Positions 11,501 through 64,000 of a stretch of DNA of 64,000 nucleotides are shown one piece after another. How positions within the stretch are numbered: the stretch's first letter is position 1; the number at the start of each line of letters is the position of its first letter. Source of the stretch: Actinomycetota bacterium (GTDB taxonomy: Bacteria; Actinomycetota; UBA4738; CALAEC01); NCBI GenBank assembly GCA_036001425.1, contig DASYUI010000002.1:2257-66256 (forward strand). The letters are read 5' to 3'. Position numbers and translations under genes: made by a program. The notes under the pieces were generated by a model. The model saw nothing but the letters and a program-made list of their open reading frames with translations. It had not been told where the DNA came from and did no database searches.

Positions 11501-11592
11501 GGAGGCGTCAGGGCGCCTGGTGGGCCCCCCGGTCTTCAAAACCGGTGTGCCGGCGAAAGCTGGCAGGCGGGTTCGATTCCCGTCCGCCTCCG
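11501..11592 (+). tRNA. selC: tRNA-Sec (anticodon UCA), selC
   Basis: Folded by hand:
- Acceptor stem GGAGGCG/CGCCTCC (7 bp) plus a 6-bp T stem, 13 bp in total, which is the tRNA-Sec hallmark.
- T loop TTCGATT.
- Anticodon stem CCGGT/ACCGG with loop CTTCAAA (anticodon UCA).
- Long variable arm GCCGGC-GAAA-GCTGGC.
- Discriminator G; no encoded CCA. Confidence 0.8.
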
Positions 11593-11595
11593 CTC
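11534..11595 (+). repeat. Direct repeat copy 1 (tRNA-Sec from anticodon loop to 3 nt past the 3' end), att-like
   Basis: The 62-bp sequence cttcaaaaccggtgtgccggcgaaagctggcaggcgggTtcgattcccgtccgcctccgctc recurs at 16639..16700 with a single T/C difference. Confidence 0.9.
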
Positions 11596-32123: not shown

Positions 32124-33496
32124 TCGCTCTCCGCCGCTTGCTCGCCCTCGGCGCTGCCGTTTCAGCTCTCATCCTCTCGCCGGCGGCCGCGCACGCGCAT
32201 CCGCTTGGGAACTTCACGGTCAACGTGTACGACGGCCTCGTCCTGTCACCGGGCCGGATCCGTGTGCTCCACGTGGTGGACATGGCCGAGATCCCGACCT
32301 TCCAAGAGCTCCGACGGCTCCCGGGGAACGGCGAACCGAGCGACGCGGAGCTCGCCGCGTGGGCCGCGGGAGCGGCTCGCCGGGCGATCCAGCAGCTCTC
32401 CCTCACGGTAGCGAGTCGCCCCGTCGCCCTTCGTCTCGAGGACGCGGCGGCCGAGCTGCGACCAGGGCAGGGCGGCCTGCCCACGCTCCGGCTCGAGACC
32501 ACGTTCGTGGGCGATCTCCCCGCCGCGGGCACCGTGGCGTTCCGCGATGGAACGTATTCCGGCCGGATCGGATGGCGTGAGATGACAGCCATCGGCACGG
32601 GTGGCACTGCGCTGCGCCGTGCATCCGTCCCCTCGGTGAGCGCGAGCAACGCCCTCCGCGCCTACCCGAATGATCTCCGCTCGAGCCCGCCGCACGTGGT
32701 CCGGGCAGCTGTGTCGTTCGGACCGGTCGGGGCCGGGTACTCGGAGATGGGAGCCGACCCCGTCACGACGGCGACCGCAGAACGGACCGGTGTGTCGGGC
32801 GGTGGCTTTGCCGATCTGGCGACCCGCCCGCTGACCCCCGCGGCGGTGACGATGGGCCTCGTCCTCGCCCTGGGGTTCGGCGCGCTCCATGCCATGGGGC
32901 CGGGGCATGGCAAGACGATCATGGCCGCGTACCTCGTCGGTTCGGGTGGGGCGATCCGACAGGTCGTGGGTGTGGCCGCGGCGGTAGCGGGGATGCACAC
33001 CGCGTCCGTCCTGGCGCTCGGGGCGGTCATCCTCTCGGCGGAGCGGGCGTTCCCGGCGGAGCGGATCTACCCATGGCTCGGTCTCGTCTCCGGAGGGCTG
33101 GCGATGGCACTCGGCGCCACGCTGCTGGCGACCCGCCTCCGGGGACGGACGGCCCATCACGACCACGATCACTCGGGTGGGGTGAGCCGGCCGCTCTCCC
33201 GTCGAGGGCTGGCCGTCCTGGCGGCCTCTGGAGGGCTTCTCCCCTCACCCACGGCGATCATCGTCCTGCTCGCCTCGATCGCCCTCGGCCGGGCAGGATT
33301 CGGCATGGCCCTGGTGGGCGCGTTCAGCCTCGGCCTCGCGGCATCGCTGGCGCTGGTCGGGGTGCTCGCGGTGCGGGCCCGAATGCACCTGGCGCCCCGC
33401 CTCGGGCGATTGACCCGGCTGCTCCCGCTGGGAAGCGCGTCTGCGATCGCCGCCTTCGGTGCGTTGTTGATGGTCCGTGCCGCCGCGCAGCTCTGA
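32120..33496 (+). CDS. Nickel/cobalt-type (NicO/RcnA-like) metal transporter with N-terminal periplasmic domain
   Basis: Signal peptide ending AAAHAHPLGNFTVN, followed by a membrane domain with HAMGPGHGKTIMAAYLVG and a His-rich loop (RTAHHDHDHSGG). ATGA overlap with the TPR gene. Confidence 0.65.
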   Translation: MIALRRLLALGAAVSALILSPAAAHAHPLGNFTVNVYDGLVLSPGRIRVLHVVDMAEIPTFQELRRLPGNGEPSDAELAAWAAGAARRAIQQLSLTVASRPVALRLEDAAAELRPGQGGLPTLRLETTFVGDLPAAGTVAFRDGTYSGRIGWREMTAIGTGGTALRRASVPSVSASNALRAYPNDLRSSPPHVVRAAVSFGPVGAGYSEMGADPVTTATAERTGVSGGGFADLATRPLTPAAVTMGLVLALGFGALHAMGPGHGKTIMAAYLVGSGGAIRQVVGVAAAVAGMHTASVLALGAVILSAERAFPAERIYPWLGLVSGGLAMALGATLLATRLRGRTAHHDHDHSGGVSRPLSRRGLAVLAASGGLLPSPTAIIVLLASIALGRAGFGMALVGAFSLGLAASLALVGVLAVRARMHLAPRLGRLTRLLPLGSASAIAAFGALLMVRAAAQL

Positions 33497-33648
33497 CCCC
33501 CTTCTATCCGGGGGGACCGCTCGCTGTCCCGCTCTGGGCTTCGGCATCTCCGGGTGAGCTACTCCCCCCGGACCCCCCTTCTCCCCGGGGGGACCGCTCG
33601 CCGTCCCGCTCTGGGCTTCGGCATCTCGGGGCGTTCTACCCCCCCGGC
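33497..33648 (+). repeat. Tandem duplication of a 76-nt G-run/C-run structured unit
   Basis: Unit 1 (33497-33572) and unit 2 (33573-33648) share ggggggaccgctcgc(t/c)gtcccgctctgggcttcggcatctc. In each unit, CCGGGGGG pairs with a downstream CCCCCCGG about 50 nt away. Confidence 0.8.
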
Positions 33649-33650
33649 GT

Positions 33651-33679
33651 TGACACCGTTCGAGCGACTGGCCTAGGTT
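33651..33679 (+). promoter_or_regulatory. Candidate sigma-A-type promoter for lutABC
   Basis: TTGACA (33651-33656), a 17-nt spacer, then TAGGTT (33674-33679, which fits TANNNT). It lies about 90 nt upstream of the lutA start. Confidence 0.5.
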
Positions 33680-33770
33680 CGGCGCGGACGCCTTCCCGGA
33701 GGTCCCGCTGACCGACGCCAGCACGCCACGAACCGCAGGGGCGAGGCGGCCCGAGCGGGCGAGCCTGTTC

Positions 33771-34505
33771 GTGACCTGTCTCGTCGACTTGCTCCACCCA
33801 GAGGTCGGGCTGGCCACCGTGGCTCTCCTCGAACGCTACGGCGTCGCCGTGGACTTCCCCGACGGCCAGACCTGCTGCGGGCAACCGGCGTTCAACTCCG
33901 GGTTTGAGGCGGAGGCGAGGTCGGTGGGCCGTGGCCTGCTGGACGCGTTCCCCGGCCCCGACCCGGTGGTCGCTCCATCGGGATCGTGCACGGCCATGGT
34001 TCGCACCTACTTCCCTCACCTGTTCCGGGGAACGCCGGACGAAGAGCGCGCTCGGGACCTGGCCGGTCGGACCTTCGAGCTGTCCGAGTTCCTGGTGGAT
34101 GTCCTCGGCGTCAGCCGCGCCGAGGGCCGGTGGCCCGGACGGGTTACCTTCCACGACTCCTGCCATGGCCTGCGGGAGCTCGGCCTGTCGGGCCAGGGTC
34201 GCCAGCTCCTCGGTGGGGTGGAGGACCTCGAGCTCGTGGAGATGGACCGACCCGAGGCGTGCTGCGGCTTCGGCGGGACCTTCTCGGTTCGCCTGCCCGA
34301 CCTGGCCACGGCCATGGCCGACGACAAGGTCGTCCAGGCCGAGGCCACCAAGGCCGACGCGCTCGTCGCTGGAGACACCGGCTGCCTCATGCACCTGGCC
34401 GGACGGCTCTCTCGAAGGAGAAGCCCGGTCCAAGCCGTGCACCTGGCCACCGTCCTGGCCGAAGCGCAGGGACTGCTCACGAGACCGAAACAGAGGCGTC
34501 GGTGA
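33771..34505 (+). CDS. lutA: Lactate utilization protein A (CCG-domain Fe-S oxidoreductase)
   Basis: VTCLVDLLHPEVGLATVALLERYGVAVDFPDGQTCCGQPAFNSG and a second CCG motif (EACCGFGG) are present. The GTG start at 33771 may clip a few N-terminal residues. Confidence 0.85.
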   Translation: MTCLVDLLHPEVGLATVALLERYGVAVDFPDGQTCCGQPAFNSGFEAEARSVGRGLLDAFPGPDPVVAPSGSCTAMVRTYFPHLFRGTPDEERARDLAGRTFELSEFLVDVLGVSRAEGRWPGRVTFHDSCHGLRELGLSGQGRQLLGGVEDLELVEMDRPEACCGFGGTFSVRLPDLATAMADDKVVQAEATKADALVAGDTGCLMHLAGRLSRRRSPVQAVHLATVLAEAQGLLTRPKQRRR

Positions 34506-35926
34506 CCGACGCCATCCTCGATGCTCACGGACGTGGGCGGTTCGAGGATCGGGCGGCCGTTGAGCTGGCAAAGCCCAGGCTTGCTCGAGCGATCGGTCGC
34601 GCCGTCGATACGGTGCAGGAGCGGCGCGACGCGGCGTTCGCCGGGTACGACCTGGAGGCGATGCGTAGGGCCGGCGAGGGCATCCGGGCGCACACCGTGG
34701 CCCGGCTCGACGAGTATCTCGACCGCTTCGCCGACCATGCCGAAGCCCGCGGTACGAACGTCTTCTTCGCCGAGACCGCCGCCGAGGCCGCCGGGTACGT
34801 GCGAGAGGTGTTGGAGCACCGAGGCGTTCGGGTCGTCGTGAAGGGGAAGTCCATGATCTCCGAGGAGATCGGGCTCAACCACACGCTCGAGGCCGCAGGG
34901 ATGGAGGTCGTGGAGACGGACCTCGGCGAGTACATCGTTCAGCTGGCGGGCGAGGCTCCCTCGCACATCATCATGCCGGCCATGCACAAGGCCCGGGCGG
35001 AGGTCGCCGAGACGCTCCGTCCCGTCGCCGGCGAGGTCCTCCCGGACGACCCTCCAGTGCTCACCGCGTTCGCCCGGCGGGTCCTCCGCGAGCGGTTCCT
35101 GGCCGCCGGCGCCGGCATCACCGGAGCGAATTTCGGCGTGGCCGACAGCGGGACCGTCGTACTGGTGACCAACGAAGGCAATGGGCGGATGTGCAGCACG
35201 CTGCCGCCGGTGCATGTCGCGTTGATGGGCATGGAGCGCGTGGTCCCTTCCATGCGAGAGCTGTCGGTGCTCCTCCCGCTGCTCACCGGGAGCGGCACCG
35301 GCCAGCGCGTCTCCACCTACGTTTCGTTCCTGGGTGGACCGCGACGGGCCGGCGAGCTCGACGGTCCCGAGGAGGTGCACGTGGTCGTGGTGGACAACGG
35401 GCGGGCGGCCATCCTGCCCACCGAGTTCCGTTCCGCTCTCCACTGCATCCGCTGTGGTGCGTGCCAGAACGTGTGCCCGGTGTTCCGTCAGGTCGGAGGC
35501 CACGCCTACGGGGGTACCTACGGCGGGCCCATCGGCGCGGTGCTCACGCCGCTGCTCGCGGGGTTCGAACGGGCCGGCGACCTCCCGCATGCTTCTTCCC
35601 TGTGCGCGGCGTGCACAGACGTCTGCCCCGTGCGCATCCCGCTCCACGACCATCTGCTGGCGCTGCGGCGGGAGGTGGTCCGGGCGCAGGCACCACGCGG
35701 CGAGCGGCTGGCCTTCGGGCTGTGGGCGGCGGCCTGGAAGACGCCGAGACGTTTCCTGTGGTTCGCTCGGGCGAGTCGGGTCCTCCAGGCCCCCTTGGCG
35801 CTGGGACGCCGGCAGATCCGCACCGCACCCTTCCCGCTGTCGCGGTGGACGCGCGGCCGTGACCTTCCGAGAGTGGCTCGACGCACCTTCCGCGAGCGGT
35901 GGCGAGCCGCGCACCGGGTGCGCTGA
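34502..35926 (+). CDS. lutB: Lactate utilization protein B (4Fe-4S, LUD domain)
   Basis: The GTG at 34502 overlaps the lutA stop codon (GTGA). VKGKSMISEEIGLN and the ferredoxin motifs CIRCGACQNVCP and CAACTDVCP are present. Confidence 0.9.
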   Translation: MTDAILDAHGRGRFEDRAAVELAKPRLARAIGRAVDTVQERRDAAFAGYDLEAMRRAGEGIRAHTVARLDEYLDRFADHAEARGTNVFFAETAAEAAGYVREVLEHRGVRVVVKGKSMISEEIGLNHTLEAAGMEVVETDLGEYIVQLAGEAPSHIIMPAMHKARAEVAETLRPVAGEVLPDDPPVLTAFARRVLRERFLAAGAGITGANFGVADSGTVVLVTNEGNGRMCSTLPPVHVALMGMERVVPSMRELSVLLPLLTGSGTGQRVSTYVSFLGGPRRAGELDGPEEVHVVVVDNGRAAILPTEFRSALHCIRCGACQNVCPVFRQVGGHAYGGTYGGPIGAVLTPLLAGFERAGDLPHASSLCAACTDVCPVRIPLHDHLLALRREVVRAQAPRGERLAFGLWAAAWKTPRRFLWFARASRVLQAPLALGRRQIRTAPFPLSRWTRGRDLPRVARRTFRERWRAAHRVR

Positions 35927-36651
35927 TGGAGCGAGAGACGTTCCTGGCGAGGGTTCGCCGCGGGCTGTCCGGGGTGGAGGCTCCACCCTTGCCGGGGGAA
36001 CTTCCCGTCACGCCGGCCTCTGACGACGGGCGTCCGCTTCCCCAACGATTCTCGGAGGAGCTGCGCGCGGTCGGCGGCGTGGTCGAGCTGGTGTCCCGGG
36101 CCGACCTGGCGGGGGCGGTGGCCGCCGCCGCGGAGAGTGTGGAGGTCGCCACGGCGGTGATCGGACCCGATGTGGAACGCTTTGCCGAGCCGGTTCGGGA
36201 GGGACTGCGCCGGGCCGGCGTCGAGATCCTGCAGCCGGAGGGACCGGAGGCCTGGCGCGAGGCCGGTGTCCGGGCCGACCTGGGGGTGACCGGCGCCCTC
36301 GCCGGGGTGGCCTCCTCCGGGTCGATCCTCGCCTCGGCCGGACCGGCCTCCTCCCGCCTGGCGAGCCTGCTCCCACCGAACCACCTCGTGGTGCTCCCGG
36401 CCGAGCGGCTCGTCCCCGGCTTCGAGGAACTGTTCGCCGAACTTCCGGGTAACGTCGAGGGAGCGTCCTCGAGCGTCCTGATCACGGGGCCATCGCGGAC
36501 CGCGGACATCGAGATGGTGCTGGTGCGGGGGGTCCATGGCCCGCGGCACGTACACGTCCTCCTGGTAGAGGAACCGCGCCGATCATCCACTAGAAGGGGA
36601 CGGCCCGCGAAACGAGCCGGCCCTCCAGGAGCCTCCAGCCTCAGACCGTGA
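35926..36651 (+). CDS. lutC: Lactate utilization protein C (LUD domain)
   Basis: The ATG at 35926 shares one nt with the lutB stop codon. MERETFLARVRRGL...SGSILASAGPASSRLASLLPPNHLVVL...TGPSRTADIE. Confidence 0.8.
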   Translation: MERETFLARVRRGLSGVEAPPLPGELPVTPASDDGRPLPQRFSEELRAVGGVVELVSRADLAGAVAAAAESVEVATAVIGPDVERFAEPVREGLRRAGVEILQPEGPEAWREAGVRADLGVTGALAGVASSGSILASAGPASSRLASLLPPNHLVVLPAERLVPGFEELFAELPGNVEGASSSVLITGPSRTADIEMVLVRGVHGPRHVHVLLVEEPRRSSTRRGRPAKRAGPPGASSLRP

Positions 36652-36730
36652 TCAGGGCCGTCCCGGTCAGCTCCTTGAAGACGAAGTTGAGGAAGAAGAA
36701 CCCGAAGAACAGGAAGTTCAACACCAGCCC

Positions 36731-36923
36731 GCACGATGCCACGCACCTCGTCGGCCGTGTCAGCAAGCACGACGACCCGAGGAATCACTCGGTATTGGAG
36801 AAGACCGTCCGACTCGTAGGTCTCCAGGGCGTGGCGGTTCGTGATGACGCGGTCGGAAGCGTAGATGTGGGTGAGTGTTTCGACGAACCGCTCCATGACG
36901 GTTCCTTCGGCCCAACCTAGCAC
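36731..36923 (-). pseudogene. 5' fragment of an FAD-linked oxidase (GlcD/D-lactate dehydrogenase-like) gene
   Basis: MERFVETLTHIYASDRVITNRHALETYESDGLLQYRVIPRVVVLADTADEVRGIVRAG is the N-terminal roughly 60 aa of FAD-binding PCMH-type oxidases. The similarity then stops, and the remainder of the 459-aa ORF is antisense to lutC. Confidence 0.5.
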
Positions 36924-36948: not shown

Positions 36949-37110
36949 TTAGCCCCCGTGCTCGTGCGGTTCGCGAAGCGACACATGAAGCTCAACGACG
37001 AGACACGAGTAGCAGATGCCGCCGGCTGGGCAGTCCGCGCGGTCGCAGCACGAACAGTAGTCGAGCCGCTTCTCGCACCCCGAGCAGATCAGCATCGTGA
37101 CGGGCTCCAT
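36949..37110 (-). CDS. Unlisted Cys-rich small protein (53 aa)
   Basis: Hand-translated: MEPVTMLICSGCEKRLDYCSCCDRADCPAGGICYSCLVVELHVSLREPHEHGG. It has 8 Cys residues. The ATG at 37110 lies about 10 nt after GAGGAGAG, and 24 nt downstream of the rhodanese-CBS stop codon. It is below the 60-aa cutoff of the ORF track. Confidence 0.5.
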   Translation of the reverse strand: MEPVTMLICSGCEKRLDYCSCCDRADCPAGGICYSCLVVELHVSLREPHEHGG

Positions 37111-37134: not shown

Positions 37135-37857
37135 CTAGCCCTGCTCGTGCTCCGCCCCGAATTGCTGGTGGAGACGATGGGCAGCCGCCTCCGCGTCCTT
37201 CCTCAGAAGCATGCCCACGAGCACCCCATCGGAGGTGGTGACGGGTGAGCTGTCGAGGTCGTGCCGGGACATGAACCGAGCCATCTCCTCGACGTGGACG
37301 TGCGGGCGGAAGGTGCTCGGTCCCGGCCGCATCACGTCCTCCACTACCTCATCGTCGCGCGCTTCCCCCAGCTCCTCCGCCCGAAGGAGCCCCAGCACGA
37401 TCCGCTCGTCGTTCACTACCACACACTCTTCCCACCCGGCCTCGTGGACCCGCTCCCGCACCTTTCCGACCCGCTCATCCAGGCGGCATGTGGGAACGTC
37501 CGAGCGGGCTATGTCCGCGGCCCGCGGCAGCCCGGCGATCTCGCCTTCACGGGGCAATCCGGCCGCGAGCCAGTCCTGCTTGCCGGCGACGTAGTCGTAC
37601 ACCTCAGTGAACCCGAGGCTCTCGAGCCGCCACGCGGCCCGTGGGCTCATGTCTCAGGCCGAGTCCCAGCAATAGACGATGACCGGACGAGAAGGGTCCA
37701 GCCGATGGGGAGCCTCGCCGTCGATGCTCCGAAGCGGAATGTTCACGGCCCCCGGGAGGTGCTCCTCCTCGTACTCCTCGCGTGGAAGGACCTCCACGAG
37801 CTGTCCCCCATCATCGAGGAGGCGCTGCACCTCCCGACGACCGATCTCCTTCGGCAT
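37135..37857 (-). CDS. Rhodanese-CBS protein with in-frame TGA (candidate selenocysteine codon at 37654-37656)
   Basis: ORFs 37654..37857 and 37135..37650 share one frame. The upstream part is a rhodanese N-terminal portion ending PVIVYCWDSA. The TGA codon follows, and then DMSPRAAWRLESLGFTEVYDYVAGKQDWLAAGLP (the rest of the rhodanese fold) plus two CBS motifs. Confidence 0.6.
37625..37647 (-). promoter_or_regulatory. Candidate bacterial SECIS hairpin
   Basis: The mRNA 5'-AGCCCACG(GGCCG)CGUGGCGGCU-3' starts 6 nt after the UGA. It forms about 8 bp with a small bulge, and the apical loop begins with GG. Confidence 0.4.
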
Positions 37858-37886
37858 CCCCCGTCCTTACCTGGGAGGATTTCCTG

Positions 37887-38498
37887 CTACCCGCGTCGTT
37901 CCCACCAGGGCCTGCCCGCCGGCCGCTCTGATGGCAGTTCCGAAGCCGGCCTGGGCGTCGGCGACGGCGGTGGCGGCGCCATGGGCGCCGGGCCGGCGGC
38001 CGGCATGGCCGGTCGCCCACCCGCCGGTTGCGCTCCGGCCCTCCGCGCCGCGGTCTTCCTCCTCGCGGTGGTCTTCTTCCGTCCGGTGGTCTTGCGCGCG
38101 GTGGTCTTCCTTCGGGCCGTGGTCTTCTTCCGGGCCGTGGTCTTCTTCCGGCCAGCGGTCTTCCGCGCCGCGGTCTTCTTCCGGCCAGTGGTCTTCCGCG
38201 CCGCGGTCTTCCTCCGCGCGGTGGTCTTCTTCCGTCCGGTGGTCTTGCGCGCGGTGATCTTCCTTCGGGCCGCGGTCTTCTTCCGCGTGGTGGTCTTCCT
38301 TCGGCCGGCGGTCTTCCGCGCCGCGGTCTTCTTCCGCCCGGTGGTCTTGCGCGCGGCGGTCTTCCTTCGGGCCGTGGTCCGCTTCCGCGTGGTGGTCTTC
38401 CTCGCCGCGGTCTTCTTTCTGGCCGTGGTCTTCTTGCGAGCGGCCGGTTTCCTCGCCGCGGACTTCTTCCGCGTCGTCCTCCTTCTCGCCGGTGGCAT
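37887..38498 (-). CDS. Lys/Arg/Thr/Ala-repeat basic protein (histone H1/AlgP-like low-complexity) with Pro-rich tail
   Basis: 203 aa (MPPARRRTTRKKSAARKPAARKKTTARKKTAARK...). The ATG at 38498 is preceded by GGGGAAGGAGGGGGAAGG. This frame has G/C at nearly every third codon position (aag, acc, gcg, cgg), unlike the two overlapping frames. Confidence 0.6.
   Translation of the reverse strand: MPPARRRTTRKKSAARKPAARKKTTARKKTAARKTTTRKRTTARRKTAARKTTGRKKTAARKTAGRRKTTTRKKTAARRKITARKTTGRKKTTARRKTAARKTTGRKKTAARKTAGRKKTTARKKTTARRKTTARKTTGRKKTTARRKTAARRAGAQPAGGRPAMPAAGPAPMAPPPPSPTPRPASELPSERPAGRPWWERRG
38018..38474. repeat. Coding tandem repeat (about 33-bp subunits nested in a unit of roughly 150 bp)
   Basis: The block TARRKTAARKTTGRKKTAARKTAGR(R/K)KTT...TARKTTGRKKT occurs twice in the protein. 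All three minus-strand frames and two plus-strand frames stay open across it. Confidence 0.8.
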
Positions 38499-38634: not shown

Positions 38635-39387
38635 GTGTCAGTGACGGATCGCCTGCTCGAAGCCGCCCGGGCCAAGCAGGAAGTGCGCGAACGCATGTGG
38701 TCCCTTCTGGAGCAAGAAGGCGTCGCTCGGTTTCCGGGGGCTCGGGGGCGGATCCCCAACTTCGCCGGGGCCGAGGCCGCGGCGGAGCGTCTGGCCGGGC
38801 TGCCCGAATGGCGGAGGGCAGCCGTGATCAAGGCGAATCCCGACGCCCCGCAGCTGTCTGTCCGGGCCCGGGCCCGGGCCCTCGAGGACGGCAAACGCCT
38901 CTGCATGGCGGTTCCACGGCTCCGCGCGGAGAACCCTTTCCTCCGCATCGACCCCGACCGTCTGTCCCGCCCATCGCGTCGAGCGGCCTCGATCAAGGGT
39001 GCGGCCAAGTCGGGGCGTCCCGTCGCGGTCGGGGACATGGAACCGATCGATATGGTCGTGTGCGGAAGCGTGGCCGTCGGCCGGAACGGCGTGCGGGTCG
39101 GCAAGGGAGGGGGATGTTCGGATCTCGAGCTCGGTCTCCTGGCCGAGGCGGGACTAGTCCATCAAGAGACGGTGTTCATCACCACCGTTCACCCACTGCA
39201 GGTCCTCGAGGAGGAGCTACCCGAGACGGGGCATGACTTCCGAGTGCATCGAATCGTGACTCCGCAGGACGTCATCCGGACGGGAGCTCGTCGATCCCCG
39301 GCAGGCATCCTCTGGGATCACCTGGACGAGGAGAAGATCGCCGCGGTCCCGGCGCTGGCCGGGTTGGCGGAGCAGCGCCTGTCATGA
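38635..39387 (+). CDS. 5-formyltetrahydrofolate cyclo-ligase family protein
   Basis: 250 aa. KQEVRERMWSLLEQEGVARFPGARGRIPNFAGAEAAAERLAGLPEWRRAAVIKANPDAPQ ... GKGGGCSDLELGLL. The family assignment is from memory of the COG0212-type pattern. Confidence 0.65.
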   Translation: MSVTDRLLEAARAKQEVRERMWSLLEQEGVARFPGARGRIPNFAGAEAAAERLAGLPEWRRAAVIKANPDAPQLSVRARARALEDGKRLCMAVPRLRAENPFLRIDPDRLSRPSRRAASIKGAAKSGRPVAVGDMEPIDMVVCGSVAVGRNGVRVGKGGGCSDLELGLLAEAGLVHQETVFITTVHPLQVLEEELPETGHDFRVHRIVTPQDVIRTGARRSPAGILWDHLDEEKIAAVPALAGLAEQRLS

Positions 39388-62622: not shown

Positions 62623-64000
62623 TCAATCGATCGCCGCCATCACGTGCTTCAGCTCGGTGTAGTGCTCGAGAGAGTAGATGCTCATGTCCTTGCCGTACCC
62701 GCTCTGCTTGTAGCCTCCATGTGGCATCTCCGGCGTGAGGGGGATGTGGGTGTTGATCCACACCGTTCCGAACCGGAGCTTCCGGGAGGCGTTCAGGGCC
62801 CGCCCGATGTCGCGGGTCCACACCGAGGCGGCGAGCCCGTAGTCCACGTCGTTGGCCCAGGCGATGGCCTGGTCGTCGTTCTCGAACCGCTGGACCGTGA
62901 CCACCGGGCCGAACACCTCGCTCTTCACGATCTCGAAGTCCTGCCCCACGTCCGCGATTACGGTCGGGCGGTAGAAGAACCCCCTGTCCCCGATCCGCTC
63001 CCCCCCGGTGAGGACCTTGGCGCCCTCCTCCCGGGCCCGCTCGACGAACCCCGTCACCCGATCGAGCTGTTGCTCCGCCACCACGGGCCCCATCTCGGTG
63101 TCGTCGCTCGAGGGATCCCCGACCTTGAGCGATTCCACCGCCGGCACGAGCTCAGACAGAAGGTTGTCGTAGATGGCCGGCCCGGCCAGGACCCGGCACG
63201 CCGCGGTGCAGTCCTGCCCGGAGTTGAAGTACCCCGCGATCTTGATCCACTCCACCGAGGACTGGAGATTGGCGTCGTCGAACACCACCACGGGTGCCTT
63301 GCCGCCCAGCTCCAGGTGCACGCGCTTGAGGGAGTCCGCCGCGGCCCGGGCCACCTCCTTCCCCGTGGTGACCTCACCGGTCAGCGAAACCATGGCCACA
63401 CCGGGATGCTTCACGATGGCCTGGCCGGTGGGGATCCCGTCCCCGGTCACCACGTTGAAGACACCGGGCGGGAAGATGTCGGCGGCGAGCTCCGCCGCGC
63501 GAAGGAGCGAGAGAGGCGTCCACTCCGACGGCTTGACCACGACGGCGTTCCCCGCGGCCAGCGCCGGACCGAACTTCCAGATGGCCATCCACAGGGGGTA
63601 GTTCCACGGAGCGATGAGGCCGACCACGCCGATCGGCTCGCGCCGGAGCATGCTCGTGTAGAGCGTGCCGTCGGACTTGAAGTACTCCCCGACTGGGAGG
63701 CCGGTCATGGTCCGGGCTGCGCCGGCAAAGAACCGCAGGTGGTCCACCATGACCGGCATCTCGTCGGTCATCACCGAGGAGAACGGCTTCCCGACGTTCT
63801 GGGACTCGATCCGTCCGATCGCCTCGGCGTTCTGCTCGATGGCGTCGGCCCACTTGAGGAGCATTCCCGCCCGCTCACCGGGCGTGGTATCGAACCACAC
63901 CTCGTCGAAGGCTTTCTGCGCGGCCCTCACCGCCCGGTCCACGTCCTCCTCAGAGCCCCTGGGGGTCTCGGCGATGGTCTCCCCCGTGGCGGGATTGACC
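62623..64000 (-). CDS. Aldehyde dehydrogenase family protein (N-terminus beyond right edge)
   Basis: [26 protein letters not shown] and SEVFGPV are present. The frame stays open upstream of the listed start (..[23 protein letters not shown]) to the window edge. Confidence 0.9.

Follow-up and report, generated by a model that had tools for sequence, protein, structure and literature searches.

The window analysed here, a 64,000-nucleotide stretch of contig DASYUI010000002.1 from the Actinomycetota assembly GCA_036001425.1, carries on its minus strand a gene for a rhodanese domain fused to a pair of CBS domains. When 37857..37135 is translated in one frame, it yields a single reading frame of 240 codons with one internal stop, a TGA at codon 68. 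The list of open reading frames (ORFs) shows two minus-strand ORFs that share this frame, one of 67 residues (37654..37857) ending in ...RPVIVYCWDSA and one of 171 residues (37135..37650) beginning with MSPRAAWRL..., just as an earlier reading of the letters and ORF list (the sequence-only reading) had described. Only the TGA (37656..37654) and one GAC codon lie between them, the DNA at the junction being TCG GCC TGA GAC ATG AGC. Public records handle the gene in one of two ways: NCBI and JGI entries either split it into a 67-residue "rhodanese" and a "CBS domain protein" of ~170 residues, or translate the UGA as Trp, and the NCBI name for the window product is "CBS domain-containing protein" (171 residues). 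We conclude with high confidence that the TGA at 37656..37654 is a selenocysteine (Sec) codon and that 37857..37135 encodes one selenoprotein of 240 residues. This is the interpretation that the sequence-only reading had proposed, and each of the tests suggested there for refuting it that was run came out in favour of Sec.

Homologues were sought among 5.8 billion proteins, and two populations were recovered: full-length rhodanese-CBS proteins of ~230 residues, and "CBS-only" proteins of ~170 residues that made up about 35 of the top 120 matches. The "CBS-only" proteins begin exactly at [ML]SPRAAWRL, where the window gene is cut too; with 67-84% identity they are the nearest relatives of the window product. 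When 74 full-length homologues were aligned, the column of the TGA held Cys in 62, "W" in 11 and R in one (P0012), so that a sense codon at this position is usually Cys, one of the two residues that the sequence-only reading had looked for there. Two of the 11 "W" entries were checked at the DNA level: both proved to be TGA, and under table 11 the record gives no valid translation. Judged by these two, the "W" at the Sec column is artefactual and stems from gene calling with a TGA=Trp code, a model that was apparently picked on short contigs.

At the DNA level, scans of two collections yielded 160 related loci with protein identities of 58-73%; 80 came from metagenomes and the other 80 from metagenome-assembled genomes (MAGs) taken at one genome per species. 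TGA occupies exactly the codon 68 column in 159 of them, and the remaining locus (L041) has TGC; because 159 of 160 diverged relatives repeat it, the pattern is far beyond chance. Protein matches in these loci cover residues 1 to about 230 with both flanks in frame, around a local motif VYC-W-D-x-x-U-D-[LMI]-S-P-R-A-A-W-R-L, and no homologue was found that truly ends at the TGA, the two halves staying in one frame in all 160 loci. The MAG labels attached to the TGA form are Actinomycetota (the majority), Dormiibacterota, Rokubacteria/Methylomirabilota, Chloroflexi and Bacillota. The base call at the TGA, which the sequence-only reading had flagged for confirmation, is identical in three independent JGI sample assemblies of the window's own contig, making an error unlikely. 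Calls with a false W were seen in the gene calls L172:301-984 and L173:301-1032 and in proteins P0002, P0024, P0031, P0037, P0051 and P0052, with further instances in P0063, P0078, P0092, P0098, P0101 and P0120.

The RNA downstream of the TGA carries a second signature. Across 144 distinct 84-nt sequences around the TGA, positions +16 to +34 after it (CGR GCC GCG UGG CGG CUC G; window 37641..37623) are almost invariant, and RNAalifold returned exactly one consensus structure for the set, a stem of 7-8 bp closed by a GUG loop, with 98.8% of cells in the hairpin paired. Four consecutive four-fold-degenerate third positions within it (two Ala codons, an Arg and a Leu codon) are fixed at 1.00, 1.00, 0.99 and 0.99, compared with 0.50-0.57 at comparable four-fold sites elsewhere in the same stretch. 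The sole variable pair, R27-U41 in alignment numbering, is AU in 90 sequences and GU in 54; the third position of this Arg codon is thus a purine in 144 of 144, though C or U would be synonymous, and CGA is an unusual choice at 69% GC. The published model of the bacterial selenocysteine insertion sequence (bSECIS) specifies a loop of 3-9 nt that opens with G[G/U], a stem of 4-16 bp, a UGA-to-loop distance of 16-37 nt and a minimum free energy (MFE) of ≤ -7.5 kcal/mol (PMC13188914). All of these limits accommodate the hairpin at 37641..37623, which has a GUG loop, 8 bp, 20 nt from UGA to loop and, folded in isolation, an MFE of -13.1 kcal/mol (z = -3.6). A natural W-to-A variant (L037 and L118) keeps the stem and has a GGC loop that still fits the G[G/U] rule.

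Conservation of this element is tied to the TGA form of the gene: its 15-nt core is identical in 144 of 150 TGA forms versus three of seven Cys forms (Fisher p = 2.7e-4). Three Cys forms that are close relatives (L041, L165 and L166, all TGC) retain an intact "fossil" hairpin, which suggests from the sequences that they are recent Sec-to-Cys conversions. The distant Cys forms L164, L167, L168 and L169 carry core substitutions that are mostly synonymous for the conserved SPRAAWRL peptide, and only five of the eight stem pairs form in L168 and L169. The hairpin that the sequence-only reading had put forward, at 37647..37625 (AGCCCACG...), can form in the window sequence; it is not, however, the conserved structure, and we rejected it as the SECIS. 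Its pairing in the relatives reaches only 90.7%, and a Ser codon that is AGY in some and TCN in others disrupts the outer 4 bp in 25% of them. The hairpin that is both conserved and more stable is the one formed by CGR-GCC-GC / GUG / GC-GGC-UCG at 37641..37623.

A gene for the cognate tRNA is present in the same window (Table 1). ARAGORN and Rfam RF01852 both recovered the tRNA-Sec(UCA) gene that had been noticed from the sequence, although its end is at 11593 rather than 11592. ARAGORN found no tRNA-Sec in 60 related loci. One locus from an Actinomycetota MAG carries a selD homologue (L138:7561-8487, minus strand; 42.6% identity to E. coli SelD, E = 1e-71) situated ~1.5 kb upstream of the rhodanese-CBS orthologue.

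Table 1. Features of the rhodanese-CBS locus and the tRNA-Sec gene in the window.
Feature	Position	Strand	Basis and remarks
tRNA-Sec (selC), anticodon UCA	11501..11593	+	ARAGORN; Rfam RF01852, 73.7 bits vs gathering score 47
Partner gene, 53-residue seven-Cys protein ending HEHGG	36949..37110	-	24 nt downstream of the predicted selenoprotein gene, same strand
Rhodanese-CBS selenoprotein gene (predicted), complete	37135..37857	-	240 codons + TAG stop, ATG start at 37857; one internal TGA
CBS pair (Bateman module), approx. residues 107-224	37186..37539	-	Pfam PF00571, Foldseek
Rhodanese homology domain, residues 9-98	37564..37833	-	Pfam PF00581; interrupted at annotation level by UGA
Bacterial SECIS hairpin (candidate)	37623..37641	-	Stem CGGGCCGC/GCGGCUCG, 8 bp; apical loop GUG 37633..37631; 12-13 nt after UGA
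UGA codon 68, predicted selenocysteine U68	37654..37656	-	TGA conservation in loci and Cys at aligned column
Cys63 codon, canonical rhodanese catalytic Cys, end of VIVY strand	37669..37671	-	HMMER to PDB rhodaneses; AF2; homologue alignment
AAGGA, Shine-Dalgarno-like, 6 nt before ATG 37857	37864..37868	-	Read from sequence; role as Shine-Dalgarno putative

Domain searches were run on the 240-residue translation with U replaced by C. Pfam Rhodanese (PF00581) matches residues 9-98 at model positions 4-101/102 with 58.1 bits (cut-off 22.2), and because this match covers the model almost completely, the rhodanese domain spans the TGA; a CBS match (PF00571, 48 bits against a cut-off of 24) lies C-terminal to it. 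Structure was modelled with AlphaFold2 (AF2) on a Cys-form orthologue (P0004) that is 64% identical to the window protein and has the identical loop CWDSAC. The model (predicted local distance difference test score (pLDDT) 96.8, predicted template modelling score (pTM) 0.88) consists of one rhodanese domain and a CBS pair, the latter built of two beta-alpha-beta-beta-alpha units; in a Foldseek search the C-terminal half superposed on the CBS pairs of MgtE, CBSX2, MJ0100 and AcuB. As had been argued from the sequence, neither ORF amounts to a complete domain, the rhodanese hidden Markov model (HMM) match and the AF2 domain both crossing the junction.

Within the rhodanese domain of the model, a strand (59-62) leads into a loop (63-69) and a helix (70-80), and C63 and residue 68 both lie in the loop. 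The active-site loop of the window protein therefore reads C63-W-D-S-A-U68-D, with the canonical Cys retained and Sec as residue 6 of seven. HMMER alignment to PDB rhodaneses places Cys63 at the canonical position, and the UGA at codon 68 falls five residues after the catalytic Cys, the spacing given by the sequence-only reading. The same alignments show a two-residue insertion after residue 68 relative to solved rhodaneses. Among the 74 aligned homologues Cys63 is kept in 73, the loop holds two nearly invariant Asp residues (D65 and D69), and invariant S71 and R73 come after it.

Other explanations of the TGA were weighed against selenocysteine. The UGA might be a true stop followed by reinitiation at the ATG at 37650, producing a 67-residue rhodanese fragment and a separate 171-residue CBS protein. 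NCBI and JGI do annotate the two pieces as separate genes, and in the window an ATG stands two codons past the UGA, an arrangement (UGA-GAC-AUG) that the sequence-only reading had itself named among the possible refutations of a Sec codon. This ATG is not a general property of the family, however: among the 144 distinct relatives, only 43 have ATG there, 7 have GTG or TTG, and 94 have a non-start codon (CTC, CTG, ATC, CTT or ATA). Two polypeptides would moreover split one rhodanese fold, since the HMM match and AF2 domain run across the junction, and reinitiation leaves unexplained both the Cys found in homologues at the exact column of the stop and the invariant hairpin that is specific to TGA forms. 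We regard reinitiation as very improbable.

An equally small probability attaches to the UGA being read as a standard residue (Trp, Cys, Gly or Arg), whether by near-cognate suppression or in a reassigned code. It could draw on the Trp given for 11 of the 74 aligned full-length homologues, and for P0002 by gene callers, and on the Arg at the TGA column of P0012, but the "W" entries that were checked carry TGA, and true sense-codon homologues have Cys at the column. TGA is also the commonest genuine stop in the window, and because it ends 12 of 17 long frames with high GC at third codon positions, the genetic code is not reassigned; a hairpin of SECIS type under RNA-level selection and a tRNA-Sec gene are, besides, both present. 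A pseudogene or a sequencing or assembly error, that is, a recent nonsense mutation or a miscalled TGC or TGT, is easily imagined given that TGA is one base from either codon and that the close relative L041 has TGC. Against this stand the agreement of the three independent assemblies and the recurrence of TGA in diverged loci drawn from many studies, in which both flanks are conserved in frame; the comparative data effectively refute it, and we assign it next to no probability.

Several observations nonetheless weigh against the selenoprotein reading or against parts of it. A tblastn search with the E. coli proteins as queries detected no selA, selB or selD in the 64-kb window. No double compensatory substitutions occur among the 144 sequences, whose stem is almost invariant, and for that reason the RNA argument rests on conservation specific to the TGA form together with one-sided AU/GU variation, not on covariation. 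The wider 81-nt context folds no better than shuffled sequences (z = -1.13). Thiosulfate sulfurtransferases do not typically have an acidic loop such as this one (D65, D69), which argues against a classical thiosulfate:cyanide sulfurtransferase activity. What reaction the enzyme catalyses and what the small partner described below does are, finally, points that we only infer.

The gene for this partner, a small seven-Cys protein, lies directly downstream on the same strand (Table 1), and of the 141 Sec-form loci whose flank extends for ≥ 220 nt, at least 100 have an equivalent ORF in that place by tblastn; a 4-nt overlap between its start and the stop of the upstream gene is present in 40 loci. 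The family has the consensus CxxC-x6-CxFC-x4-C-x4-CxxC...pHxHGG-COOH; HGG forms the C-terminus in 72 of 92 members. Searches of Pfam and NCBIfam gave no family for the partner protein. An exhaustive HMMER search gathered 53 representative clusters, nearly all of them stand-alone proteins of 47-66 residues and none with an informative domain fusion, while a word-based homologue search gave one relative; the AF2 model of the partner reached a pLDDT of only 67. The partner was not found beside the seven Cys-form genes examined, a small sample with short flanks. When ORFs of 90 codons or more were clustered over 5 kb on each side, no other family recurred in more than 8 of 78 loci. As the only linked neighbour, the seven-Cys gene points to a mobile two-gene cassette made up of it and the selenoprotein gene, and its HxHGG-tailed product is likely to be a partner or substrate of the selenoprotein. 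Gly-Gly-tailed sulfur carriers are served by rhodanese domains, and the C-terminal Gly-Gly of the partner recalls such proteins.

The surroundings of the two genes differ between loci. Directly upstream in the window, at 37887..38498 on the minus strand, is an ORF of ~200 residues with repeats rich in Lys, Arg, Thr and Ala (TTARKKTAARK...), in a region where all three frames are open; it resembles histone-like basic repeat proteins and adjoins the rhodanese-CBS gene in only four related loci. Further upstream lies a 5-formyltetrahydrofolate cyclo-ligase gene (38635..39387, plus strand), and downstream of the cassette, at about 33000..36900 on the minus strand, is a LutABC-like cluster (CCG domain, LUD domain with 4Fe-4S, LUD domain) that is also seen as genes in L001/L002; the linkage of neither to the cassette is kept in other loci. 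In L090, L098, L103, L108 and L136 a tRNA-Thr(CGU) gene is located about 100-250 nt upstream of the rhodanese-CBS gene. A survey of the window for other selenoprotein genes was negative: the remaining same-frame ORF pairs split by a TGA are tandem genes or wrong-frame artefacts of high GC. In the strongest of these pairs, on the minus strand, aldehyde dehydrogenase genes of 458 and 485 codons stand in tandem in the same frame with a single TGA between them, and this TGA (62625..62623) looks like the boundary of ordinary adjacent genes and not like a Sec codon.

For the selenoprotein itself we propose the following mechanism. The GC-rich hairpin at 37641..37623 would act as a bacterial SECIS, bound by SelB carrying Sec-tRNA(Sec) from selC at 11501..11593, and delivery of Sec to the ribosome would compete with release factor 2; binding by SelB and actual incorporation of selenium are, like the enzymatic role, steps that we infer. 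The product would be a single-domain rhodanese fused to a CBS pair, in which Sec replaces the second Cys conserved in the Cys-type homologues. Rhodanese chemistry proceeds through a persulfide on the loop Cys, and Sec/Cys pairs have a usual role in selenoproteins. On the strength of this established chemistry and of that usual role, Cys63 and Sec68 may constitute a thiol/selenol pair, for instance through a selenenylsulfide or an S-S-Se intermediate, in sulfur transfer or thiol-redox reactions. The CBS pair might confer regulation of the adenine-nucleotide type, and the translationally coupled seven-Cys HxHGG-tailed protein could serve as partner or substrate. By analogy, the most likely function would thus be that of a nucleotide-responsive thiol/selenol pair engaged in sulfur transfer or redox. 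A bolder extension, which we consider rather unlikely, is that the selenoprotein and the seven-Cys protein form an unrecognised, soil-widespread cassette trafficking sulfur, selenium or a metal, in which the small protein would be a dedicated acceptor through its Cys cluster or its C-terminal Gly-Gly and the CBS pair would gate transfer by nucleotide status.

Taken together, the data give good support to a family of rhodanese-CBS selenoproteins that is large and is mis-annotated systematically; it is characterised by a C-x4-U loop, a compact conserved SECIS and a small Cys-rich partner. Since current pipelines miss this family, domain counts, selenoproteome sizes and estimates of selenium use will be too low for soil Actinomycetota, Dormiibacterota and Methylomirabilota. 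Sec stands beside the canonical rhodanese Cys instead of replacing it, giving a natural Cys/Sec pair in a persulfide-handling loop and a testable model for the tuning of sulfur-transfer chemistry by selenium. The near-invariant hairpin offers a clean and very short SECIS for these phyla, and the conservation of the small HxHGG-tailed protein with seven Cys suggests a pathway that has yet to be characterised.

Rhodanese-like proteins with Sec have been predicted before (PMC1088965, PMC2398784), and the statement in the sequence-only reading that rhodaneses figure among predicted prokaryotic selenoprotein families is borne out by an inventory from 2026 that covers 119 families or subfamilies of prokaryotic selenoproteins (PMC13188914, Table 1). 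Five rhodanese-like forms are listed there, with the motifs UxxS (form 1), UxxG (form 2), CxU (form 3, NF041203), UxxG (form 4) and UxxxxU (form 5, TsoB, NF045694) (PMC13188914); the inventory mentions neither a CBS fusion nor a C-x4-U motif. The deep-Sep and BSepDB papers make no mention of a rhodanese-CBS selenoprotein, and full-text literature searches returned no paper in which rhodanese and CBS domain occur together with selenocysteine or selenoprotein. The window family shares with the five forms a rhodanese domain with Sec in or beside the active-site loop, a UGA with a downstream SECIS, and Cys homologues. It differs from them in that the canonical Cys is kept, Sec follows five residues later (C-x4-U, then D-[LMI]-S) and a CBS pair is fused to the domain. 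Form 1 (Geobacter WP_010941598.1) was compared by its listed motif, UxxS, and the rhodanese half is possibly related to it. The window protein had no NCBIfam match above cut-off. It scored 19.4 bits against a cut-off of 115 for NF041203 (LYCAU type, C-x-U), to which it does not belong, its own motif being C-x4-U, and 26 bits against 805 for NF045694, from which it is likewise excluded, having one Sec and no DsbD part.

The best match to the rhodanese half is BH2092 of Bacillus halodurans, a structural-genomics rhodanese (PDB 3NHV and 3O3W; E = 1e-10, rmsd 1.8 A over about 109 residues). Its loop, YCWGPAC (Y-C-W-x-x-x-C), is likewise followed by a helix, but it has Cys at the second position instead of Sec and is a single domain without a CBS pair. 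We know of no reported function for BH2092, and a literature search on it gave nothing relevant. GlpE and PspE, which appeared as weak NCBIfam and PDB matches, share the fold and likewise carry the catalytic Cys where the central strand ends; the window loop is one residue longer (seven versus six), acidic (D65, D69) where theirs is cationic, and equipped with a second chalcogen residue, and the protein scored about 20 bits versus 102 in the GlpE/PspE equivalog test.

Compared with the E. coli fdhF-type SECIS and the bSECISearch consensus, the hairpin of the window is similarly placed just past the UGA in coding sequence and has a small loop starting with G-U, with stem, spacing and energy within limits. 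It is unrelated in sequence to the fdhF element and has a minimal 3-nt GUG loop; its binding by SelB is predicted. A CBS module fused to a Sec-containing rhodanese is not known from earlier descriptions. The C-terminal half superposes on the adenine-nucleotide- or S-adenosylmethionine-binding CBS modules of MgtE, CBSX1/2, MJ0100 and AcuB; its own ligand binding is putative.

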